From the UHGV virus genome UHGV-0120889: a stretch of DNA of 64,000 nucleotides. The stretch is one strand, 5' to 3'. This DNA comes from a virus. A program made the translations under genes and the position numbers. Under the pieces are notes generated by a model. That model ran no database searches and was not told the DNA's origin. It saw only the letters and a program-made list of their open reading frames with translations. Positions 14,309 to 44,576 of this stretch are shown piece by piece. Every line of letters begins with the position of its first letter. Positions within the stretch are counted from its first letter, which is position 1.

Positions 14309-15397
14309 TTAGATAAAACGCTTGAACATAGAAGGTGATGAGATTGATGGAATCACACAAGGAAGTGCTACTTCCTCTTTCTCCAGGAAATTAATAGCAG
14401 AAGCTACACAGTCAGCCCAGTCGTCTTTTCTGTTAAATGTTGATCTTTCCCCGTTGAATTTTTCAAGTTCAGTCAGAAATGCTTCCAGAGTATCAGGATG
14501 GAAACTGGATTTTACAATCCTCACCATTCCTTGTTGGGCAAGATTGGCAAAAGGTGAGAACCTTGTCAGTTTAGATTTGTTGGAAGGCATTGGGTCTTCT
14601 TCAACCCTAAACCCTTCGGCAAGCAAGGATCTGGAGGAGGTTAAGAACTCACTCTTACCTGCCTGACCGGGGTCCACAGAGAATACGATTATACAATCAT
14701 CACCATCAAACTGCGCCTGTTTCCTGATGATCACATCTCGTTCACCAGCCTTTTTACAGAACTTGCCTTCTAGACCTGTGGAATACCTCCCGTCATCCAC
14801 GTTCTCAGGACAATAATCACCGGACAGGTAATAAAAGCCGTCGCTATCTTTACTTACCTTAACACTGGCGGTAAAGTCAGGAAATTTATTACCGGAAGTT
14901 CTCTCGGTTCCTGCCTTATCCCATGCCCTGCAAGATACTGATCCAAGGGGTACTCTATCGGCATCACGAAGGAAAGATCTTTGAAAATAGTTTGCGCCCT
15001 CAGGCTTTGCAAACCAGTTACCATGAAGAAGCTGAGCTTTTTCCAGTTCCGGCAGACCTTCAAGGAAAGCAAGGTATTCTGGGTTGTCTCTTAAGCAAAC
15101 AGGATTATCGAATATTGTTGCGCCTATAAACGAGAATGACAACGGTCTTGGCTTGATCTCCACACCAAGTCCGTTAACCGTGGTGTATTTCTCTATCAAC
15201 TCTTCTTTAGAGTCCCCCCAGATAAATTCACCGTCGCGTCGGATAAAATATCTTTTCTTACCGCATTTCTCCGGATCTGGATACCCTTCATCGTCCAACC
15301 ACCACCTAACCAGTTTGGCAAGCATGTGTTCTGAATCGGGGTTACAGCTGATAACCATTCTTGATGGATACTTTGACTGAGATCGCAGACGAGACAT
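14309..15397 (-). CDS. terminase large subunit, C-terminal (nuclease) segment; 5' boundary approximate (exon 2)
   Basis: Same strand, immediately downstream of the ATPase segment after a ~340 bp ORF-less gap; frame open upstream of first Met to 15433. Confidence 0.75.
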   Translation of the reverse strand: MSRLRSQSKYPSRMVISCNPDSEHMLAKLVRWWLDDEGYPDPEKCGKKRYFIRRDGEFIWGDSKEELIEKYTTVNGLGVEIKPRPLSFSFIGATIFDNPVCLRDNPEYLAFLEGLPELEKAQLLHGNWFAKPEGANYFQRSFLRDADRVPLGSVSCRAWDKAGTERTSGNKFPDFTASVKVSKDSDGFYYLSGDYCPENVDDGRYSTGLEGKFCKKAGERDVIIRKQAQFDGDDCIIVFSVDPGQAGKSEFLTSSRSLLAEGFRVEEDPMPSNKSKLTRFSPFANLAQQGMVRIVKSSFHPDTLEAFLTELEKFNGERSTFNRKDDWADCVASAINFLEKEEVALPCVIPSISSPSMFKRFI

Positions 15398-15746
15398 CAG
15401 ATAGTCTATCTGCTCCCATTCGAATTGTGTCGTTTATGTTCGGGCAAGGTCGCTAGTCTTGCCCCGCCATTTTCAGGCAGCTGCATGTCTCCATGCAGAC
15501 CAGACTATATCTTATAAGCGACAACAACCGCTTATCCTCCCGTTTCGAATCGCTTGATTCTACGTCTTTCGACTAGTCGTTGAACGTTCATCCTCTCGGA
15601 TGCTTCGCTGCGGATTATCTAAATTAACACACTGTTACCATACCTTCGATCTCTCTTCGAAGCCTCTATCATGTTACCATGACAGGTTGGTGGTATTAAT
15701 AGTAAAGATTTCCCCGCAATTAGGGAGGTTTTACGAGAGCTACAAA
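15398..15746 (-). other. ORF-less intervening sequence inside terminase large subunit gene (putative self-splicing intron)
   Basis: No ORF in any frame; multiple perfect hairpins (CTGCATG/CATGCAG, CTTCGA/TCGAAG, GGGCAAG/CTTGCCC); separates Walker-A/B ATPase part from C-terminal part. Confidence 0.5.
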
Positions 15747-16175
15747 TTAACCCTCATCGAAGCAAACCATGGTGTACTCAAGCCCTTGATGGTTAAGCTT
15801 ATCTTGTACATACTCCATGTGGCAGTATTTTACAACAGCTCCCTTTTTGCTTCTATCCCACTTGCCAGTGTTCGGATCAAACCGTGGAAAAATGAACTTA
15901 TGATCCTTCTCTCTGAACTTTGGCTTAATGTTTTCAGGCAGATCACTATAAATAGCTACCGCTTTAGGCCATAGTCCACCCTCACCTTCCAACTGCGGGG
16001 TTGTTCTTCGGAACATAACCACAGAGCTGTGGGGGTCATCAATAATTTTAAGTGGCATCAATTGCAAGAGGAACGACTTGCCAGACCCTGCGGCACCGCC
16101 GATTACCAAAATATCTGCATCGTTTTCGAGGATCATCTTCTGCTTTTCAGAACACGGTCCGTAAATCTTAGACAT
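15747..16175 (-). CDS. terminase large subunit, N-terminal ATPase segment (exon 1; 3' boundary approximate)
   Basis: Walker A VIGGAAGSGKSF and Walker B-like VCFDE motifs characteristic of large terminase ATPase domain. Confidence 0.8.
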   Translation of the reverse strand: MSKIYGPCSEKQKMILENDADILVIGGAAGSGKSFLLQLMPLKIIDDPHSSVVMFRRTTPQLEGEGGLWPKAVAIYSDLPENIKPKFREKDHKFIFPRFDPNTGKWDRSKKGAVVKYCHMEYVQDKLNHQGLEYTMVCFDEG

Positions 16176-17278: not shown

Positions 17279-17355
17279 TGGTCTCCACGGAGTGATTCGA
17301 ACACTCGACCTCCTGATCCCAAATCAGGCGCTCTACCAAGCTGAGCTACGCGGAG
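17279..17355 (-). tRNA. tRNA-Pro (anticodon UGG)
   Basis: Manual cloverleaf: acceptor CTCCGCG/CGTGGAG, D-arm GCTC..GAGC, anticodon loop UUUGGGA, T-loop TTCGAAT, encoded CCA. Confidence 0.85.
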
Positions 17356-17366
17356 TATTTATTATT

Positions 17367-17441
17367 TGGTGGCCCTGGGTGGAATTGAACCACCGTCTGG
17401 CGATTATGAGTCGCTTGCTTGAACCTTCCAGCTACAGGGCC
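17367..17441 (-). tRNA. tRNA-Met (anticodon CAU; could be Ile-lysidine type)
   Basis: Acceptor GGCCCTG/CAGGGCC, anticodon loop CUCAUAA, T-loop TTCAATT, encoded CCA. Confidence 0.8.
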
Positions 17442-17442
17442 A

Positions 17443-17518
17443 TGGTGCTGATGGCAGGACTTGAACCTGCAACCTATTGATTACAAATCAATTGCACTAC
17501 CAATTGTGCTACATCAGC
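17443..17518 (-). tRNA. tRNA-Thr (anticodon UGU)
   Basis: Acceptor GCTGATG/CATCAGC, D-arm GCAC..GTGC, anticodon stem ATTGA/TCAAT loop UUUGUAA, T-loop TTCAAGT, CCA. Confidence 0.85.
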
Positions 17519-17524
17519 AAAAAA

Positions 17525-17623
17525 GGTGCTAGGTGATGGAATCGAACCACCTATGTATTCAACGACTACCTCGTCTATTTTCAGGATTAAAAATCCTCGC
17601 CCTTGCCAAAGGGCTTACCTAGC
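17525..17623 (-). tRNA. atypical tRNA-like gene (possible anticodon UUU; ~30-nt extra arm)
   Basis: Acceptor GCTAGGT/ACCTAGC, D-arm GCCC..GGGC, T-arm GGTGG-TTCGATT-CCATC present, but 99 nt long with oversized variable region and no encoded terminal A. Confidence 0.3.
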
Positions 17624-17721
17624 TCAGTATGTTGACCATGTTGCTAGTCGGCGATGACGACTGTAACATTTGATAATCCGGTTCTGCTTCCGGCTTTCGC
17701 TTAATTACAAGGTCAACAATA

Positions 17722-17812
17722 TGGCTGAGGGTAATGGAATCGAACCATCATCGAGTCATCCTCAACGGGACGGTTTTCAAGACCGCTTGAGCACCATTGC
17801 TCCCTACCCTCA
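17722..17812 (-). tRNA. tRNA-Ser (anticodon UGA), type II
   Basis: Anticodon arm GCGGT-CUUGAAA-ACCGT, long variable arm, T-loop TTCGATT, acceptor TGAGGGT/ACCCTCA, CCA. Confidence 0.75.
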
Positions 17813-17926
17813 TTTATAAACAATACTGATAATGACACTGATTTTCGAGCAGTTAGTGACTAGTATAAACGACGATAAATATCAATGCCATTATCTGTAT
17901 GATTTATGCATTTAAAACTATAAATT

Positions 17927-18013
17927 TGGTGGGGAGTGGTGGAGTCGAACCACCCGAGTCGTAATGACAATAGATTTACAGTCTACACCGCTACCTCTAC
18001 GGGATAACTCCCC
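17927..18013 (-). tRNA. tRNA-Tyr (anticodon GUA), type II
   Basis: Anticodon loop CUGUAAA and variable arm TGTCATTACGACTCG closely resemble bacterial tRNA-Tyr; acceptor GGGGAGT/ACTCCCC, CCA. Confidence 0.85.
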
Positions 18014-18017
18014 AATT

Positions 18018-18092
18018 TGGCACCCCGTACTGGACTCGAACCAGTGTCAACGGCTTAGAAGGCCGCTGCTTTATCCACTAAGCTAACAGGGC
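18018..18092 (-). tRNA. tRNA-Arg (anticodon UCU)
   Basis: D-arm GCTT..AAGC, anticodon arm GCGGC-CUUCUAA-GCCGT, T-arm ACTGG-TTCGAGT-CCAGT, CCA. Confidence 0.8.
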
Positions 18093-37057: not shown

Positions 37058-37288
37058 ATGAGTCATAACTCCAAGTGGAAGGATCTTGGTTTTGCAAGTC
37101 GGGCAGAGTATGTTGGTTGGCTTTGGTTCAATGGCCTGACAAACGATATTAAAATGTATGATGATGTCTATTATGACGAGTATACAGGTAAAATTATAAA
37201 TATCTCTGTAGAAGAGGATACTTTTATCCAGCAAGATACTGATACCTGCCTTGATAAATACGTTAGTGAAGTGGAGGAAGCAAATTGA
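37058..37288 (+). CDS. hypothetical protein (76 aa)
   Basis: ATG 37058 with AAGGTGG RBS; stop overlaps nrdA start. Confidence 0.4.
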   Translation: MSHNSKWKDLGFASRAEYVGWLWFNGLTNDIKMYDDVYYDEYTGKIINISVEEDTFIQQDTDTCLDKYVSEVEEAN

Positions 37289-39600
37289 TCACCAAGGTAA
37301 TTAAAAGCAACGGATGTGAAGTGGCATTCGATCCAGAACGTTTAAATAAGGCAGCTATTTTCGGTGACGATGGTAACGGCAATTGGTCACATATTGCACT
37401 GGATGCCTACAAGCGGTTGTATGATGGATGTACAACCAAAGAAGTTAACCAAGCTATTATAGACTCTTGTGTTAGCCGTAAAGACGAAGCACATTCCCGT
37501 ATGGCTGGTCGTGTTCTTATTGGTCAGATCTATAAAGAGGCTTTTGGAGGGTTTACAAAGATCCCTTCCTTACCATCATTTTACAATGACATGGTTGAGA
37601 AAGGTTATTGGGAGGATATGGGTTATAGCTTTACCGAGCTGAACACTTTAGACGCTGTTATTGACCACAGTAAAGATCTCGGTTATGGCTATGCAGTCCT
37701 TAAACAGTTTCGCGACAAATACGGGATCAAGGATACTCTTAAAGACACCTTGTTTGAATCTCCCCAGATGATGTTTATGGGGATAGCAATGGCTGTCATG
37801 AAGAATATGCCGAAAGAACGTCGTATCAACGATGTTGTAAAATTATACACTTATCTGTCCGACTTAAAGATCAATGCCCCAACACCGTACTTAAACGGGC
37901 TGCGTACAGGTAAGACAGGGTATGCATCTTGTTGTGTAATAAAAGCTGACGATACAGCAAAATCTATTGGTGTGGCACGTGAAGTTGCGTACACAATGAC
38001 GGTTAACCAAGCAGGTATCGGCTACTACTTATCCTCAAGATCTGCAGGCGATGGTGTTCGTGGTAACACTATTAAACATATGGGTAAGATTCCATATTAT
38101 CGAGGTATTGATGCTGGGGTTAAGGAGAACAGACAACAATCACGTGGTGGTTCTGCAACAGTATCATTCCTTGCACTGGACCCGCAGATTGATGAGCTAA
38201 TCCGTTTGAGAAACCCTATGACTGTTGCTTCAAAAAGAATCAACACCATGGACTACTCCATCGGTATTAATAGGTCGTTTATCAACCGTGTGGCTAAGAA
38301 TTTAGATTGGATGCTTGTTTCTTATAAGCACGCGCCTCAACTGCATGAGGGTATCTTCACCATGTCTATGGAGGAGTTTGATGCAGAGGTTGATCGTATT
38401 GCTAAAGATGACAGTATTCCTAAAACATGGATCCGAGCCAGAGATCTTGCTGTTGAACTGATCACGCAGCGTACTGAGGTGGGAAGGCTGTATGTATACT
38501 GGACAGATGAGATGAATAGGCATACACCTTTTAAAGATGTGATCTATTCAAGCAACCTGTGTGCAGAAATAGCCCTCCCGACAAAAGGCTATTCAGATAT
38601 GCGTAATATCTTCAAGTACGATGTTGATGATGGTGAGGTTGCATTGTGCTTCCTGTCATCTCTTGTAGCTGGAAGGGTTACCCCAGAGGAGTATGAGGAT
38701 GTTGCATACTACACGGTGCTTATGATTGACAATGTTATGGAAATCATGACATATCCGTATGAAAATATGGAGAGCACTGTTAAAAAACGCAGATCCATCG
38801 GGGTTGGCCTTACCAATGTTGCACATTTTATTGCCAGCCACAAGGTTACTTACGGATCTCCTGAAAGTAAACAGCTCGTTCACGATCTTGCAGAACTTCA
38901 CAGCTACAGCTTGCATAAGGCAAGTTTACGGTTGGCAAAAGAGCGTGGTGTCTGCGAGTGGATGCATAAAACAAAATATCCAGAAGGTTGGTTACCAATC
39001 GACACCTATAACAAAGAGGTCGATAGCGTGGTGAAAGATCCTTCTCTTAAACAGGATTGGGAAGGGTTACGTAAAGAAATCATTGAGAATGGTGGGCTAC
39101 GTAATAGCGTTCTTGAAGCATATATGCCTAATGAAAGCTCTTCGCTGGCAACAAACACCACTAACGGGGTTTATCCTGTCCGTGAGCACATTATCTTTAA
39201 AAAGTCGCCACAAGGGCAGGTGCTGTTTATCGTTCCTGACTATGATGAGTTGAAAGAGTATTACACCTCGGCTTGGGACGTTGATACTAACGACATGATC
39301 GATATGTATGCCGTGATTCAAAAATTCACAGGTCAGGCAATCAGCGCGGATTTATACATAGACTACACCAAGTTGAAAGATGGTAAAATTTCAATGAAGG
39401 AGCAGTTAGGGTACCTTATCCGTGCCACTAAATTCGGGATGAAGACATGGTATTATTTAAACTCTAGGGTTGGTGCTGGTGACTCCTTGGCAGAGGAACT
39501 TCATGCCAAGAAACAGGCTGAAGATGAAACCAGAAAGAACTATCCTTTGATTGCAGATAGTTCAGTTGAAGATCCGTATTGCGAAAGCTGTGCACTATAA
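37285..39600 (+). CDS. nrdA: ribonucleoside-diphosphate reductase large subunit (class Ia NrdA)
   Basis: 771 aa; active-site region SSNLCAEIALP and C-terminal Cys pair (CESCAL) typical of class I RNR alpha; followed by nrdB. Confidence 0.8.
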   Translation: MITKVIKSNGCEVAFDPERLNKAAIFGDDGNGNWSHIALDAYKRLYDGCTTKEVNQAIIDSCVSRKDEAHSRMAGRVLIGQIYKEAFGGFTKIPSLPSFYNDMVEKGYWEDMGYSFTELNTLDAVIDHSKDLGYGYAVLKQFRDKYGIKDTLKDTLFESPQMMFMGIAMAVMKNMPKERRINDVVKLYTYLSDLKINAPTPYLNGLRTGKTGYASCCVIKADDTAKSIGVAREVAYTMTVNQAGIGYYLSSRSAGDGVRGNTIKHMGKIPYYRGIDAGVKENRQQSRGGSATVSFLALDPQIDELIRLRNPMTVASKRINTMDYSIGINRSFINRVAKNLDWMLVSYKHAPQLHEGIFTMSMEEFDAEVDRIAKDDSIPKTWIRARDLAVELITQRTEVGRLYVYWTDEMNRHTPFKDVIYSSNLCAEIALPTKGYSDMRNIFKYDVDDGEVALCFLSSLVAGRVTPEEYEDVAYYTVLMIDNVMEIMTYPYENMESTVKKRRSIGVGLTNVAHFIASHKVTYGSPESKQLVHDLAELHSYSLHKASLRLAKERGVCEWMHKTKYPEGWLPIDTYNKEVDSVVKDPSLKQDWEGLRKEIIENGGLRNSVLEAYMPNESSSLATNTTNGVYPVREHIIFKKSPQGQVLFIVPDYDELKEYYTSAWDVDTNDMIDMYAVIQKFTGQAISADLYIDYTKLKDGKISMKEQLGYLIRATKFGMKTWYYLNSRVGAGDSLAEELHAKKQAEDETRKNYPLIADSSVEDPYCESCAL

Positions 39601-39607
39601 TTTTAAA

Positions 39608-39627
39608 GGGGCTTCGGCCCCATTTTA
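39608..39627 (+). terminator. hairpin/attenuator between nrdA and nrdB
   Basis: GGGGC-TTCG-GCCCC followed by ATTTTAG; short U-tract, nrdB RBS immediately after. Confidence 0.4.
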
Positions 39628-39638
39628 GAGGTAGAATA

Positions 39639-40727
39639 ATGGCTGTATTTAATGCTGAGAACACCGCTCATAAAACTGGTGACTATCCGCTGTTTCTGGG
39701 ACAGCAAATGGGTATGTACGACTCTATCAACAAAAAATATCCACAACTGTTTGAACTATACAAAAAACAAAAAGAGCAAGATTGGGCAGAGGATGAAGTG
39801 GATTTGTCGCAATCTATTTCAGATTTTGTAACATGCTCAAAATCAACTTATGACGTGATGGTGCAGACCTTGATGTGGCAATGGGAGGCTGATAGCGTTG
39901 CGGCAAGATCGATCATCTGCCTCTTTTCACCATTCATCACTAATAGTGAGCTTTTCACTCTATTGATGAAACAGTCAGAGATTGAAGTTCTTCACGCACT
40001 AACTTACTCAGAGATTGTTAGACAATGCCTCCCCAATGCCCGTGAGATTATAGAAGAGATTCAGGAAAACCAAAACGTTCTGAGCAGATCCGGCGTTATT
40101 GTCAAATACATGCAAGAGCTTGAGGTTATTGGTGCAAAATACCGCCTGGATCCTTCTAGTGTTGAAGAAGATATTGTGCGGAAATGCATTCTTAGAGCGC
40201 TTTTTGCGCTTTTAGCTCTGGAAAGTATTGAGTTTATTGCAAGTTTTGCATGCACTTTCGCAGTAGCTGAACAGGGTATCTTTGTTCAGGTGGCGCAGCT
40301 TGTTCAAAAAATCATGCTTGACGAAATGCTACATTCGAAAGGTGATTTTGCCATCATTGATATCTTGCTTAATGATCCCGCATGGGAGAAAAGCTTCCTT
40401 GAGATAAAGGGGGAGTTAAAAGAGATTCTTGATGAAGTACGAACCAAAGAGTACGGTTGGAGTGACTATATTTTCAGCGAAGGAAGAGCGATTATAGGTC
40501 TTAACTCACCGTTGCTTAAAGAGTGGGTTGACTATAACTGCTCACCGATTTATGATTACTACGACATCGACAAAGACTTTGTGCCGCCAACAAAGGACCC
40601 GCTACCGTTTATGCAGGTGTGGATGAAACCTTCATTACAACAGACGGCGAACCAAGAAATGTCGAACACTGACTACCGCGTCAACACAACTGTTAACGAC
40701 GCTGAAGAAGAAATTTGGGAGTTTTAA
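39639..40727 (+). CDS. nrdB: ribonucleoside-diphosphate reductase small subunit (NrdB)
   Basis: ATG 39639 with AGAGG RBS; 363 aa helical protein adjacent to nrdA; di-iron ligand-like E/H motifs (MLDEMLHSKGD). Confidence 0.7.
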   Translation: MAVFNAENTAHKTGDYPLFLGQQMGMYDSINKKYPQLFELYKKQKEQDWAEDEVDLSQSISDFVTCSKSTYDVMVQTLMWQWEADSVAARSIICLFSPFITNSELFTLLMKQSEIEVLHALTYSEIVRQCLPNAREIIEEIQENQNVLSRSGVIVKYMQELEVIGAKYRLDPSSVEEDIVRKCILRALFALLALESIEFIASFACTFAVAEQGIFVQVAQLVQKIMLDEMLHSKGDFAIIDILLNDPAWEKSFLEIKGELKEILDEVRTKEYGWSDYIFSEGRAIIGLNSPLLKEWVDYNCSPIYDYYDIDKDFVPPTKDPLPFMQVWMKPSLQQTANQEMSNTDYRVNTTVNDAEEEIWEF

Positions 40728-40730
40728 TAT

Positions 40731-41009
40731 ATGAGCTGCGAAAAATCTTTTTTCATCATCATTTACGGTAAGGATAACTGCCCACATTGTGTCAGAGCAA
40801 AAGAATTTGCAATCAGCAAAGGTCTGCCTTTTGTATATAAGACACTTGGCGAGGGCTACACAAAAGAAGAGCTTATTGAGAAGTGCAGTCCAATCGTCCC
40901 CCGAACGTTGCCGCAGATCTTCTTAGAAAGCGATCTTGACAGTATCCATATAGGCGGTGCCGACGATTTCATCTCTTTTGTTAAGAATGGTTTTGGAGAG
41001 AAAAAGTGA
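40731..41009 (+). CDS. glutaredoxin/NrdH-like redoxin
   Basis: CPHC active-site motif in 92-aa protein between nrdB and nrdD. Confidence 0.65.
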   Translation: MSCEKSFFIIIYGKDNCPHCVRAKEFAISKGLPFVYKTLGEGYTKEELIEKCSPIVPRTLPQIFLESDLDSIHIGGADDFISFVKNGFGEKK

Positions 41010-41869
41010 AAGTTGTAAAACGGGACGGTAGAGAAGAGTTCTATAACGGAATTAAGGTGATCAAGGCGGCAGAGTCCGCCTTACTTGAGTCTGGACATAC
41101 TGAAGAAGAAGCTTACCGGATCGCTTGTGCGGTTAATGAAGTTGTTGCTAACAATCTGCCAACCGACCAGTGCACGATCTCTGTAAAAAATATCCATATC
41201 CTTGTTGAAGATGCTCTTATGGATATGGGTTTAAAATGTGCAGCCAGAGAATACATCCAGTATAGACAGACAAGAGATAATAACAGAGAGGCAGGTGGAA
41301 AACTACTTGCAGATATTAGTGGCTTCTTGGATCGAACTTGTGATGAATTTACAAAAGAAAACGCAAATAAGCCCACTAATCATGTACACACTCATCGTGA
41401 CCTGCTTGCAGGCATCCTTAGCAAACACCTTGCATCAACACAGATCCTGCCAGACCGTGTTTCAGAAGAGCACAATAAAGGCTTCATCCATGTGCATGAT
41501 CTTGACTACTTGATCAGTCCGTTAACAAACTGTTGTTTGGTAAATTATCCAGATATGTTGGAAAACGGATTCAACATTGGCAACGCCCATGTCAGTAAGC
41601 CGAAGTCAATAGGGGTTGCAACAACAATCCTTAGTCAAATCTCTAGCGCGGTAGCTAGTGCTCAATATGGTGGTCAGACTATGAGCCATATTGATCATTA
41701 TCTGGCACAGTATGCTGAAGCAACCTATGAGAAGAACCTTAAATTTTGCCAGGAACATTGGTTGCCGGATGCTGAAACTGTTGCAATGCAAATGACAGAT
41801 AAAGATGTATTTGACAGCATGCAGACTTTGCTCTATCAAATCAATACGTTAACCTCTGTCAACGGTTAA
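41006..41869 (+). CDS. nrdD: anaerobic ribonucleoside-triphosphate reductase NrdD, exon 1 (3' boundary approximate)
   Basis: ATP-cone start MKVVKRDGREE, IHVHDLD and NCCL motifs; ORF ends where intron-like sequence begins. Confidence 0.7.
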   Translation: MKVVKRDGREEFYNGIKVIKAAESALLESGHTEEEAYRIACAVNEVVANNLPTDQCTISVKNIHILVEDALMDMGLKCAAREYIQYRQTRDNNREAGGKLLADISGFLDRTCDEFTKENANKPTNHVHTHRDLLAGILSKHLASTQILPDRVSEEHNKGFIHVHDLDYLISPLTNCCLVNYPDMLENGFNIGNAHVSKPKSIGVATTILSQISSAVASAQYGGQTMSHIDHYLAQYAEATYEKNLKFCQEHWLPDAETVAMQMTDKDVFDSMQTLLYQINTLTSVNG

Positions 41870-42717
41870 CAAACTGGCCGTTGTAAAACTCTCCTAACCT
41901 CATAAGAGGGGTCGGTAAATCCGGCTAACGGGGAACGCTAAGGCGAAAGCTATGCCAATCCCGTGACTAGTTCTTACAGGAGTTGGAACGGTTGTAACGA
42001 CTAACGAAAGGCAGAGATGCTTGACAAACATTTCTGAACCAAGTAGTGTAGGGGTTAGTTGAAATACTAACTTCGAAATGGAGAGGCTCTATGAAAAAGA
42101 TCATTCTTAATGGTGAAGAATCGAACTATGTGATTGATGAGGTTGGAAACGTATACGGAAAACGTGGAATGCTACACCCAATATTGTGGGGAGGTTATGG
42201 AAAAGGTAACAAGCATGTTAAACGCCGTTATATGTACTCTTTCAACCACAAAGGTAAAAAGATTCGAATCCAAACCTCAAGGGTTGTTGCCTTGTATTGT
42301 TTGCCAGATGTCCCAGAAGACCCTGAAAACTGGGAAGTGAATCATAAAGATGGCAATACATTGAATGATCATCCGTCTAACCTAGAGTGGGTTTTGCCGG
42401 AAGATAATAAGAGACATGCTTTCCGAACAGGACTTTGTCCAGGTAAGTGCTATAGGAAAGTGCAGGCATACAAAGGGAAAATCTTGGTGGGTGAATATCC
42501 TTCACTCTATGCCTGTGCAAAAGCCTTAAATTTGAACGTAGGTAACGTTCACAGGGCTATCGAAGGAAATGCCGAAGGTAAGCATCTCACAATAAAGGGT
42601 TATTATCTTATTGAAGTAGAGTAAGAGATAGTCTGGCCCTGTGGAAACACAGGGAGGAGACAGCAGACTCCATTCATCACATTAAGTTTAGGACTAGATA
42701 CCTCGGTCTTTGGTAGA
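41870..42717 (+). mobile_element. putative group I intron in nrdD carrying an HNH homing endonuclease gene (boundaries approximate)
   Basis: ~850 bp interrupts nrdD between N- and C-terminal halves; contains free-standing HNH ORF; flanking non-coding parts are structured. Confidence 0.55.
42091..42624 (+). CDS. HNH homing endonuclease (intron-encoded)
   Basis: Classic HNH motif EVNHKDGNTLNDHPSNLEWV; located inside nrdD intervening sequence. Confidence 0.75.
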   Translation: MKKIILNGEESNYVIDEVGNVYGKRGMLHPILWGGYGKGNKHVKRRYMYSFNHKGKKIRIQTSRVVALYCLPDVPEDPENWEVNHKDGNTLNDHPSNLEWVLPEDNKRHAFRTGLCPGKCYRKVQAYKGKILVGEYPSLYACAKALNLNVGNVHRAIEGNAEGKHLTIKGYYLIEVE

Positions 42718-43926
42718 ATGATTACCAAAAACTACTTGAAAGTCCACAAAATGGGTCTTGGTGAAGAACGTATCACACCTGTGTTCCCTAAAGTGCTGTT
42801 CTTCCTGGAAGAGGGTGTCAACATGAACCCTGGGGATCCTAACTATGATTTGAAACGATTAGCTCTGGAATGCTGTGCAGAACGTATCTATCCTGACTTC
42901 GTATCTGTACCACTAAATAGAAAAGTGACAGGCTCGACAGATGGCAAAGTAACTAGCATGGGTTGCAGGAGTTTTCTTAGCAAATACAATGACTTGGAAA
43001 CAGGCGAGGAGAAATACCTTGGCAGATTTAACTTAGGCGTTGTTAGCCTTAACCTGCCAATGATTGCGGCAAAAGCTAAAACGGAAGGTGTTGATTTCTT
43101 TGCAGTTCTTGACGAATACCTGGATCTTGCATACGAGGCTCACCTTGTAAGGGTTAATCGTCTAAAAGGGACAAAGGCAGGGCAGAACCCTATCATGTGG
43201 TGTGAAGGCGCTCTTGCTCGCCTGGACCCTGAAGAGAGTATTGATAAACTCTTCTATGACGGGTACGCTTCCATCAGTATTGGGTATATTGGTGTGTATG
43301 AAACCTGTCAGATTTTGGGCAGAGAGGGTGACAAGGCTTTAGCTCTTGGAATCCTTCAGCACATGAGAGATGCTTGTGAGCGACACAAGAAGGAAAGTAG
43401 ACTAGCGTTTAGCTTGTACGGCACCCCTTCTGAGAGTCTATGCTATAAAGCTGCAACCTGTCTGGATCGTGAATATCCTGAAGTGTTGAAGCACGAGCAT
43501 GAATATCTCACCAACAGTTTCCATCAGCCAGTATGGATCAATAGCTCTCCTTTTGATAAGTGGGAGTATGAGGAAGGTTTTGCTATGATCTCCTCTGGTG
43601 GCAACATCGGATACGTAGAGACACCAAATCTGAAAAACAACTTAGATGCTTTGGAAGCTCTTGTTGATTTCGGATATAAACACATTATGTATTTTGGTAT
43701 TAACCAACCTGTGGATAAATGTCTCAAGTGTGGTTTCTCTGGTGAGTTCAGTGCAACAGCTAAAGGCTTTGTATGCCCAGAGTGTGGAAACCATGAAGAG
43801 GGAACGATCAGTGTAATTCGACGTGTGTCTGGATACCTTTCCAGTCCTAACTCCCGTCCTTACAATAAAGGTAAGCAAGCGGAAGTTATCGAGCGAGTTA
43901 AGCACTACGGAAGTTGTGGTTGCTGA
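42718..43926 (+). CDS. nrdD: NrdD exon 2 (5' boundary approximate; frame open from 42625)
   Basis: C-terminal zinc ribbon CLKCGFSG...CPECGN and glycyl-radical motif RRVSGYL. Confidence 0.7.
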   Translation: MITKNYLKVHKMGLGEERITPVFPKVLFFLEEGVNMNPGDPNYDLKRLALECCAERIYPDFVSVPLNRKVTGSTDGKVTSMGCRSFLSKYNDLETGEEKYLGRFNLGVVSLNLPMIAAKAKTEGVDFFAVLDEYLDLAYEAHLVRVNRLKGTKAGQNPIMWCEGALARLDPEESIDKLFYDGYASISIGYIGVYETCQILGREGDKALALGILQHMRDACERHKKESRLAFSLYGTPSESLCYKAATCLDREYPEVLKHEHEYLTNSFHQPVWINSSPFDKWEYEEGFAMISSGGNIGYVETPNLKNNLDALEALVDFGYKHIMYFGINQPVDKCLKCGFSGEFSATAKGFVCPECGNHEEGTISVIRRVSGYLSSPNSRPYNKGKQAEVIERVKHYGSCGC

Positions 43927-43989
43927 TTCTTGACAAAAGCCACAAGAATGTGGCATATTATTGACACACAGTGAGCTAGGAGGTGCAGT

Positions 43990-44106
43990 ATGTCATCAGG
44001 TATTTATAAAATTTGCAAGTGCGGCTGTAGTTGTAATCTTCGTTGGTGCAAGGCACTAGACGATTTTATTTGGCATTGCCCTAAATGTGATGCGGAGTAT
44101 CTATGA
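43990..44106 (+). CDS. small Cys-rich zinc-ribbon-like protein (38 aa)
   Basis: AGGAGG RBS 6 nt upstream; CKCGCSC...WHCPKCD; stop overlaps nrdG start. Confidence 0.45.
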   Translation: MSSGIYKICKCGCSCNLRWCKALDDFIWHCPKCDAEYL

Positions 44107-44576
44107 ACATTGCTGGATACACAGAAATATCTTACACCGAAGGACCAGGTATTAGAACTGCCTTGTGGGTATCTGGGTGCCCACACGCTTGCCCTGGTTG
44201 CTTTAATCAGGCATTTTGGTCAAAAGATAAGGGGAGGAAGTTCACTGAAGAAGACTTGCAAAAAATCTTGTCAGATTTAGATAACCCGTCTGTGTGCGGT
44301 ATCTCTCTACTAGGTGGAGAACCCTTAGCATACTATAATGAGCCAGATATTATTAGCCTGATGGAGAAAATTAAGGAAAAATTTGGTGACAAGAAAACTA
44401 TTCTTGTATATACTGGGTTCACATTTGACCATATCTCTAGTGATGTTCTTAAACTGGCTGATATCATCATTGACGGTAAGTATGTAAAAGATTTACCAAC
44501 CAAGAAACCGTTCCGAGGCAGTGATAACCAAAGAATGTTTAAAAAAGTATCAGGCGGTTGGGTTCAGGTAGACTAG
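44103..44576 (+). CDS. nrdG: anaerobic RNR activating protein NrdG (radical SAM)
   Basis: CPHACPGC cluster motif near N-terminus; 157 aa; directly after nrdD. Confidence 0.75.
   Translation: MNIAGYTEISYTEGPGIRTALWVSGCPHACPGCFNQAFWSKDKGRKFTEEDLQKILSDLDNPSVCGISLLGGEPLAYYNEPDIISLMEKIKEKFGDKKTILVYTGFTFDHISSDVLKLADIIIDGKYVKDLPTKKPFRGSDNQRMFKKVSGGWVQVD

Follow-up and report, generated by a model that had tools for sequence, protein, structure and literature searches.

A probable mobile group I intron with its own HNH homing endonuclease gene in nrdD of an rV5-like E. coli phage

In the 64,000-nt stretch of DNA analysed here (the window), which comes from an rV5-like E. coli phage (Vequintavirus), two pieces of nrdD are separated by an insert that contains an HNH endonuclease gene, and the locus raises the question whether these are separate genes or one gene joined by RNA splicing. 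Many GenBank records of rV5-like phages give two or three 'nrdD' fragments at this place, and in the BASEL phage records, which are an independent annotation, nrdD is given as a joined CDS across the same insert. No publication on an nrdD intron of a Vequintavirus turned up in our literature searches, and the paper on rV5 (PMC3606486) describes none in this gene. We are confident in reading the insert (41867-42663) as a phage IA-type group I intron that is mobile and has its own HNH homing endonuclease gene (Table 1). For annotation this means that nrdD should here be read as a single spliced gene (707 codons) rather than as two genes and a free-standing HNH gene. A group I intron with an HNH gene in nrdD is genuine, but it belongs to an ordinary, already annotated class of mobile element, and it leaves the current understanding of group I introns and homing endonucleases unchanged.

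Positions 1-154 of the 562-position Pfam NRDD profile match the first nrdD piece, which also has the ATP-cone domain. Positions 156-562, together with Gly_radical, match the translation from 42661. This bears out the view of the earlier note that nrdD is split into an N-terminal and a glycyl-radical part. The edges of the insert were set by a comparison with intron-less nrdD, as that note had suggested. The intron-less phage rV5_ev147 (L001) reads …AACGGG directly followed by CAAACTCC… where the window has …AACGGT, the 797 nt of the insert and then CAGACTCC…, i.e., the insert is precisely absent. The protein of this relative is continuous (…SVNG-QTPF…), and hence the splice sites lie after U41866 and after G42663; no other pair of sites keeps the frame open and has both a U at position -1 and a G at the end of the intron. 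The first three intron bases (41867-41869) are UAA, a stop codon in frame with exon 1. The 54 nt at 42664-42717 encode QTPFITLSLGLDTSVFGR, which is conserved with T4 NrdD; the spliced product and the intron-less protein are collinear and both have 707 aa, and the ligated sequence encodes the same …NGQTPF…. The insert had been placed at 41870-42717 (about 850 bp), and this comparison corrects both edges and the length. The former edges are ORF edges, set by the TAA that closes ORF 1 and by the first ATG of ORF 3 (Table 1).

Table 1. Positions of the nrdD exons, the intron with its ribozyme elements, and the endonuclease gene in the window.
Feature	Position	Strand	Description and evidence
ORF 1	41006-41869	+	287 aa, ends in TAA
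nrdD exon 1	41006..41866	+	287 codons, ATP-cone domain and N-terminal part of NrdD; ORF, Pfam, junction, P1 pairing
P1 exon strand	41860-41866	+	CAACGGU, last 7 nt of exon 1; U41866 pairs with G41877 (U·G) at the 5' splice site
Group I intron	41867..42663	+	797 nt; precise absence from L001, sub-threshold Rfam Intron_gpI, helix table and pair counts
Internal guide sequence	41874..41883	+	GCCGUUG 41877-41883 forms P1 with the last 7 nt of exon 1
P3 5' strand	41889..41894	+	CUCUCC, pairs with GGAGAG 42080-42085; pseudoknot with P7
P3.1 hairpin	41898-41909	+	Between P3 and P4, optional peripheral
P3.2 hairpin	41911-41925	+	Between P3 and P4, optional peripheral; compensatory change
P4-P6 domain	41928..41993	+	Rfam partial match, pair counts, sequence match to Bacillus phage intron
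P4	41928-33 with 41959-64	+	
P5/P5a	41937-55	+	Closed by GAAA loop
P6	41965-68 with 41990-93	+	
P6a	41970-89	+	
P7 5' strand	41999..42003	+	GACUA, pairs with UAGUC 42629-42633
P7.1	42010-42040	+	Extended hairpin
P7.2	42052-42073	+	Hairpin
P3 3' strand	42080-42085	+	GGAGAG, doubles as Shine-Dalgarno of the endonuclease gene
P8 5' strand	42086-42092	+	GCUCUAU, holds the first two bases of AUG 42091-42093
HNH homing endonuclease gene	42091..42624	+	177 aa, in P8 loop; UAA 42622-42624 overlaps P8 3' strand and J8/7
P8 3' strand	42616-42622	+	
J8/7	42623-42628	+	
P7 3' strand	42629-42633	+	UAGUC
P9 hairpin	42637-42654	+	GAAA loop
Intron 3' tail	up to G42663	+	9 nt, AGGAGACAG, ends in terminal G
nrdD exon 2	42664..43926	+	420 codons and stop, glycyl-radical domain; Pfam, junction; starts CAG ACU CCA (QTP)
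ORF 3	42718-43926	+	Starts at ATG 42718

The earlier note had read the insert as a group I intron and had made this reading depend on a group I core. The full core was found: P1 with its U·G pair, P3 to P9, the P3/P7 pseudoknot and the terminal G are present and P2 is absent, with P3.1, P3.2, P6a, P7.1 and P7.2 as extra elements. Other Vequintaviruses carry a 257-nt endonuclease-less intron at the same site, and seven distinct variants were checked sequence by sequence for each helix (helix table); all helices were present. The pair U41866·G41877 occurs in all seven, the outer P1 pair is C-G in one intron class and A-U in the other, both sides having changed, and in one variant from a metagenome (L019) the outermost P1 position is mismatched (C×U). 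P3, homologous in position to that of the T4 nrdD intron, forms six of six pairs in all seven variants with one compensatory change from C-G to G-C. A 42-nt stretch of P4-P5 is 90.5% identical to the intron of Bacillus phage S4-2. The P7 helix holds the guanosine-binding site of group I introns. P7.1 and P7.2, which follow the P7 5' strand and precede the P3 3' strand, differ in sequence between the intron classes but are hairpins in both, and these peripheral hairpins place the intron in subgroup IA (phage IA2-like). Upstream of the guide strand of P1, CUG (41874-41876) could pair with the first bases of exon 2 (CAG) as a weak P10.

Compensatory changes maintain this core. In an alignment of the variants (A2), 99.7% of the 392 pair cells held standard pairs, compared to 32-53% when the partners were slid, and two-sided changes were found in six pairs (P1, P3, P3.2, P6a, P9 and a hairpin at the 3' splice site) versus 0-1 in the slid controls; this covariation draws on essentially two lineages, each compensatory change being one event. 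MAFFT misaligned the full cores from P7.1 to P8 and these segments were trimmed before the pair count, so that P7.1, P7.2 and P8 take their support only from the per-sequence helix table. The folding energy of the endonuclease-less intron was better than that of 200 of 200 shuffles (z = -3.77).

The covariance search that had been proposed for this locus gave 28.7 bits (E = 5e-5) for the window with Rfam Intron_gpI (RF00028), and 29.8 bits (E = 2e-4) for the 257-nt endonuclease-less allele, in which the whole model from P1 to P9 aligned with P1 at the exon junction (range among endonuclease-less alleles 27-30 bits); all these scores are below the gathering score of 50 bits. A scan of the window at the gathering threshold accordingly reported no nrdD intron but only an intron in the terminase large-subunit gene (TerL) and tRNAs. 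The low score is explained by the model, which forces P3 beside P4 and leaves no room for P3.1/P3.2 and an ORF in L8. As a positive control, the SPO1 intron, a proven one with this layout (HNH ORF in L8, stop codon at the P8/J8-7 boundary), scored only 25.6 bits. Introns with P3.1/P3.2 and an L8 ORF are thus a blind spot of the covariance model, scoring far under the Rfam threshold. In a permissive scan, 41928-42004 gave a partial match to model positions 60-149, and the best alignment (42367-42654) ran through the ORF with P1-P6 misplaced; of these, we regard only the partial match and the 3' part of the best alignment (J8/7, P7 and P9) as credible, the 3' part of the ribozyme (42616..42663) being the strongest section of the Rfam alignment. 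A P3 adjoining P4 as in the Rfam model would have just 3-4 pairs without covariation and was rejected in favour of CUCUCC/GGAGAG.

A split gene that is not spliced is documented for a phage ribonucleotide reductase: nrdA of Aeromonas phage Aeh1 is, like nrdD here, interrupted by an HNH endonuclease gene (mobE), and according to the account cited in PMC7344957 it is not spliced and gives rise to two polypeptides. On this model the insert would be a non-splicing intervening sequence with an HNH gene, and two NrdD polypeptides would assemble after translation. The stop codon at the end of exon 1, the ATG at 42718 and the sub-threshold Rfam score would fit such a case. That ATG, however, lies 54 nt inside exon 2, no good Shine-Dalgarno precedes it, and a start there would drop the 18 conserved codons at the beginning of the exon. 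Furthermore, the complete ribozyme core with its compensatory changes distinguishes the insert from the unspliced nrdA/mobE, the 257-nt endonuclease-less version at the same site is not explained by insertion of an endonuclease gene, and the boundaries follow the U…G rule and restore the intron-less protein exactly. We therefore consider an unspliced nrdD highly improbable.

The ORF within the intron was correctly recognized as an HNH gene in the earlier note but is not free-standing as claimed there, because it lies in the P8 loop and both its start and its stop overlap core helices. It contains EVNHKDGNTLNDHPSNLEWV at aa 82-101 (nt 42334-42393), with the motif residues H85, N89 and N97, and its NHKDGN…SNLEWV aligns with DHKDGN…TNLRWV of I-HmuI, the nickase of the SPO1 intron. 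Pfam HNH_3 was matched with 29.5 bits (cut-off 24.8), PDB 1u3e (I-HmuI) over residues 8-160 versus 8-159 (E = 1.8e-4), PHROG 59 with E = 3.6e-26, and SPO1 I-HmuI itself by BLASTP with 25% identity (E = 3e-9). An N-terminal DNA-binding region and a C-terminal NUMOD-like helix-turn-helix collinear with those of I-HmuI may be present; Pfam I-HmuI_NUMOD-like gave 18.4 bits, below its cut-off of 27. The 177-aa protein is thus related in fold to I-HmuI, and it is predicted to be an active HNH endonuclease of this type.

Two experimentally proven introns, those of T4 nrdD (sunY) and SPO1, share P7 (identical strands), J8/7 (near-identical) and the CGAAA-P3' segment with the intron described here. The T4 intron interrupts the same gene in the same conserved region (…NTLxSxNGQTPF…), is of the phage IA type without P2, has P3 directly after P1 and 'GUAAAA', keeps the order CGAAA-P3'-P8, has an in-frame stop codon shortly after the 5' splice site and carries a homing endonuclease gene. 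It is inserted inside the Tyr codon of AYE-Y-EVNTL, whereas the site here, 29 nt downstream of it, is in phase 0 behind the G of NG-QTPF, i.e., in another codon and another phase. The T4 endonuclease is a GIY-YIG enzyme (I-TevII) and not an HNH protein, the T4 ORF begins only downstream of the complete ribozyme core, in contrast to the L8 ORF here, P3.1 and P3.2 are missing in T4, and the T4 intron scores 105 bits in Rfam compared to 28-30 here. Orthology of the two nrdD introns is ruled out by the different insertion sites and endonuclease families. In the SPO1 DNA polymerase intron and its relatives (Bacillus phage S4-2), P2 is likewise absent, the P3 5' strand follows right after P1, and extra hairpins between P3 and P4 precede 'GCUAAC'-P4. 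We had considered these hairpins as a possible novelty and rejected this, since they occur in the SPO1 and S4-2 introns and P3.1 is listed among the optional group I pairings (PMC3873408). In SPO1, too, the P8 loop houses an HNH ORF (about 175 aa) that stops at the P8/J8-7 boundary. Its product I-HmuI appears collinear with the endonuclease here, but at only 25% protein identity; the host gene and the host phylum are different, and the Shine-Dalgarno of the SPO1 ORF is inside the loop, whereas here it is the P3 3' strand, with the AUG in P8. Within the same phage group, rV5 and other Vequintaviruses have group I introns in the terminase large-subunit gene, one of them with a homing endonuclease (PMC3606486). 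The window contains an endonuclease-less TerL intron (15481-15759, minus strand), the strong Rfam match of which (84 bits) is unlike that of the intron in nrdD.

We infer splicing, cleavage and homing alike from the sequence. After transcription and folding of the RNA, exogenous guanosine would attack after U41866 at the U·G pair of P1, and the freed exon 1 would then attack after the terminal G42663. This would join AAC GGU to CAG ACU (predicted junction …GUCAACGGU joined directly to CAGACUCCA…) and restore an uninterrupted 707-aa NrdD (…SVNG-QTPF…), and the in-frame UAA just past the 5' splice site would halt ribosomes short of the ribozyme. Since nrdD is dispensable under aerobic culture, viability of the phage is no proof of splicing. 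The intron might splice in vivo only, with the help of host or phage factors or of ongoing translation, and not by itself in vitro: P6 and P10 are weak, the large L8 ORF overlaps P3 and P8, and in Bastillevirinae phages four of eight spliced genes were spliced in infected cells only (PMC11878797). The closely similar SPO1 intron, by contrast, self-splices in vitro (PMC11878797), and the core helices here are regular and stable, so we consider a strict dependence on the cell unlikely.

The endonuclease gene overlaps the ribozyme: its Shine-Dalgarno is also the P3 3' strand, the AUG is in the P8 5' strand, and the stop codon is in the P8 3' strand and J8/7. Translation of the endonuclease and folding of the ribozyme are therefore probably mutually exclusive. 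Tentatively, the gene might be wired into the ribozyme as a switch between splicing (NrdD) and translation, and given that the site is empty, endonuclease-less or endonuclease-containing in different relatives, the endonuclease might have a role in competition between co-infecting Vequintaviruses, but we hold this to be possible rather than probable. An intron endonuclease of ΦPA3 was reported to act in competition between co-infecting phages (PMC11620839). A consensus promoter for the endonuclease gene was not found within the intron; the candidate TTGACA (42021-26), followed after 17 nt by TAGTGT, matches only three of six positions in the -10 hexamer and failed the scan. There was no signal for an operator similar to the homing site, such as T4 introns have (local alignment scores 7-9, shuffle mean 8.0 ± 1.3).

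The distribution among relatives bears on whether the element is still mobile. The same 797-nt insert occurs in 28 phage records with 97.4-99.4% identity and is therefore no chance pattern. Among 121 related phage records, the site is occupied by the endonuclease-containing intron in 28 and by the endonuclease-less intron in 14, and it is empty in the rest (about two thirds), a three-state polymorphism that a mobile intron would be expected to show. When viral and metagenome contigs were scanned with patterns for more distant relatives, only Vequintavirus copies and chance matches in GC-rich DNA came up. Judging from I-HmuI and the T4 Mob enzymes, the endonuclease most likely nicks or cuts the intron-less nrdD of co-infecting relatives near the site coding for NGQTPF, and recombinational repair would then copy the intron together with flanking exon sequence into the recipient (homing). 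A working ribozyme with an inactive endonuclease, i.e., a decay stage of the homing cycle in which the intron persists by vertical descent only, would be in line with the 14 endonuclease-less records, with the missing internal promoter and with the Asn that replaces the Asp of I-HmuI before the catalytic His. We judge it quite unlikely, as the ORF is of full length compared to I-HmuI (177 versus 174 aa) with an intact H…N…N motif, a full-length ORF (98.3-100% protein identity) is present in all six individually listed carriers of the 28, the empty sites show that targets exist, and the endonuclease-less class, with differences all along P7.1 to P8, is no simple deletion derivative. With empty sites, endonuclease-less and endonuclease-containing introns and a second intron site, the Vequintavirus nrdD locus covers all stages of the homing cycle and may offer a natural system for studying the spread of introns in coliphages of the type used in therapy.

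nrdD is interrupted in the window, as the earlier note had claimed. The 562-position Pfam NRDD profile is divided between two pieces: positions 1-154, together with the ATP-cone domain, fall in a 287-aa ORF (41006-41869), and positions 156-562, with the Pfam glycine-radical domain, in the frame read from 42661. Between them lies a 177-aa ORF (42091-42624) that matches HNH_3 (Pfam), the HNH motif quoted in that note being its residues 82-101. In phage rV5_ev147 (L001) nrdD is uninterrupted (707 codons) and continuous across the site: 41000-41865 aligns with L001 501-1366 and 42663-44000 with L001 1367-2704, the two blocks abutting in L001 and leaving an insert of 797 nt in the window. The junction reads …GTC AAC GGG|CAA ACT CCA… in L001 and …GTC AAC GGT|TAACAAACTGG…(intron)…GGAGACAG|CAG ACT CCA… in the window. 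The intron is placed at 41867-42663, because splice sites after U41866 and after G42663 are the only pair giving a U before the intron, a terminal intron G and an open NG-QTPF frame together; the limits 41870-42717 proposed earlier are ORF edges. Exon 2 starts at 42664 and not at the ATG at 42718, and the 18 codons between them (QTPFITLSLGLDTSVFGR) are conserved with T4 NrdD. The flanking codons differ synonymously, GGT|CAG with the intron (41864-41866, 42664-42666) and GGG|CAA without it (L001 1364-1369). P1 needs the T of GGT to form its U·G pair, and the differences could affect endonuclease recognition or mark co-conversion.

The insert is a group I intron, as first read, and from its sequence it is predicted to splice. 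The decisive comparison is with an endonuclease-less allele, a 257-nt insert at the identical nrdD site in 14 Vequintavirus records (e.g., HeinrichReichert, L002, and Shigella phage CM1, L007), which aligned across the whole Rfam model, P1 through P9, with P1 lying at the exon junction (29.8 bits, E = 2e-4), and whose folding beats 200 of 200 shuffles (z = -3.77). The window intron itself went unreported in the default Rfam scan; a permissive scan matched it to Intron_gpI (28.7 bits, E = 5e-5), the alignment being credible in J8/7, P7 and P9, with a separate 11-bit match at 41928-42004 to the P4-P7 part of the model. The score is low because the model expects P3 to adjoin P4 and mis-pairs P3, whose 5' strand here immediately follows P1 and "UAAAA", as in the T4 nrdD intron, with two hairpins then preceding "UAA"-P4. 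Two other introns share this arrangement: that of the SPO1 DNA polymerase gene, where hairpins and then GCUAAC-P4 come after P3 (CCCAGUG/CGCUGGG), and one from Bacillus phage S4-2, which has 90.5% identity to the window intron over 42 nt of P4-P5; P3.1 is one of the optional group I pairings (PMC3873408). Since the SPO1 intron, self-splicing by experiment (PMC11878797), scores just 25.6 bits, the sub-threshold score is a limitation of the model and not counter-evidence. It is possible that the window intron splices solely in vivo.

Helices of the nrdD intron and neighboring nrd genes (window positions)
Feature	Position	Pairs with	Place in gene order
P1	41860-66	41877-83	
P3	41889-94	42080-85	
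P3.1	41898-909		
P3.2	41911-25		
P4	41928-33	41959-64	
P5/P5a	41937-55		
P6	41965-68	41990-93	
P6a	41970-89		
P7	41999-42003	42629-33	
P7.1	42010-40		
P7.2	42052-73		
P8	42086-92	42616-22	
P9	42637-54		
nrdA	37285-39600		first
nrdB	39579-40727		after nrdA
glutaredoxin gene	40731-41009		between nrdB and nrdD
nrdG	44103-44576		after nrdD

The group I core is present, every helix being kept in 7 distinct variants (phage records, IMG/VR, metagenomes). In a trimmed alignment, P3/P7 pseudoknot included, standard pairs made up 99.7% of 392 pair cells, compared with 32-53% when partners were slid by 1-3 columns. Both-sided changes occurred in 6 pairs, one each in P1, P3, P3.2, P6a, P9 and the 3'-splice-site hairpin (0-1 in slid controls), each counting as a single event because there are effectively two lineages. 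P7.1, P7.2 and P8 form hairpins in both intron classes from unrelated sequences. Three points speak against a split gene that does not splice, of the Aeh1 nrdA/mobE type: the conservation of this core, the presence of an endonuclease-less intron at the identical site, and the absence of a start codon where nrdD is broken. The group I intron also has a 4-bp hairpin (GGAG, 42656-59/CUCC, 42668-71) that pairs its tail with exon 2, with the 3' splice site in the loop; it covaries between the classes (A-U to G-C, the exon base changing synonymously within a Thr codon) and may present or mask that site.

The HNH ORF occupies the entire P8 loop and ends in a UAA (42622-24) that is shared with the P8 3' strand and J8/7, much as the UGA of the SPO1 ORF lies in …CAACGGUUGAAGAUAUAGUC. 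Residues 8-160 align with I-HmuI, the SPO1 enzyme (PDB 1u3e, E = 1.8e-4; 25% identity, E = 3e-9 by BLASTP), including NHKDGN…SNLEWV with DHKDGN…TNLRWV, and PHROG 59 (HNH endonuclease) is matched at E = 3.6e-26. Protein matches of at least 95% identity occur in 28 phage records, the number carrying the full intron; beyond these, identity drops to less than 60%. Single-strand nicking is described for I-HmuI and for phage HNH enzymes related to it (PMC2988022), and by analogy nicking is most likely the activity of the window enzyme, although it has possibly lost activity. Its Shine-Dalgarno GGAG (42080-83, 7 nt before the AUG) belongs to the 3' strand of P3, and P8 contains the AUG, so ribozyme folding should mask translation initiation, resembling the RBS sequestration described for T4 intron endonucleases (PMC2988022). 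No convincing T4-like internal promoter was found in the intron, nor a T4-like operator resembling the homing site for this gene. The enlarged P7.1 loop holds TTGACA (42021-26), followed by no acceptable -10 element.

The T4 nrdD intron (1033 nt) differs in encoding the GIY-YIG enzyme I-TevII, in lying inside the Tyr codon of …QAYE-Y-EVNTLFSSNGQTPF…, and in having its ribozyme core (L006 2484-2253) entirely upstream of the I-TevII ORF (L006 2213-1437), whereas the window intron lies 29 nt downstream of the T4 site, after the Gly of NG|QTPF, and carries its HNH enzyme in L8. The two are separate invasions of one conserved stretch, not orthologues.

By megablast, 121 phage records, nearly all rV5-like E. 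coli phages (Vequintavirus), match 41000-44000 (slur16 and slur12 highest, 98.5%); the intron is present with its endonuclease in 28 of them and in the endonuclease-less form in 14, while the others have no intron at the site, a patchwork expected for a mobile intron under gain and loss. Identity between the classes is only about 86% over the 139 nt at the 5' end, and from P7.1 through P8 they are wholly different (42006-42045 vs L002 1509-1514), so the endonuclease-less intron did not arise by simple deletion from the window intron. Metagenome contig SKEL01000041.1 (L019) combines the endonuclease-less intron with the exon-1 flank GTCAAC typical of the other class, which leaves the outer P1 pair mismatched (C×U); this sequence combination suggests recombination near the splice site. 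The window's intron is already in GenBank (97.4-99.4% identity), in BASEL phage records the nrdD CDS is annotated as a join that encloses a "putative homing endonuclease", and an HNH homing endonuclease has been named in FV3 since 2012. The element is thus already known and its kind textbook; our literature searches found no paper describing a Vequintavirus nrdD intron.

A second nrdD intron site, empty in the window, lies about 300 nt downstream (between 42963 and 42973, near the …TSMG|CRSFLS… codons). Some relatives have an intron there: that of phita32 is 770 nt long (L003 2465-3234) and includes an HNH ORF of 183 aa, and that of a Vequintavirus contig from IMG/VR is about 240 nt and ORF-less (L009 2246-2485, 70.5 bits). 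The GTG start of nrdD at 41006 overlaps the glutaredoxin stop codon, and the Pfam ATP-cone spans residues 1-91 of the translation from there; some GenBank records (L002; WalterGehring, L005) set the start 213 nt downstream, truncating this domain. In some relatives nrdD and nrdG are separated by an extra gene annotated as a "putative homing endonuclease" (L005 3598 onward); in the window the spacer (43927-44102) contains just a terminator-like hairpin at 43939-43954 and a site resembling a promoter at 43930-43959. Six tRNA genes cluster at 17282-18092 (minus strand). The window has a second group I intron, ORF-less (15481-15759, minus strand; Rfam, 84.3 bits), between terminase large-subunit pieces at 15747-16175 (Walker A motif GAAGSGKS) and 14309-15397; it fits the rV5 report of "introns in terminase" (PMC3606486).
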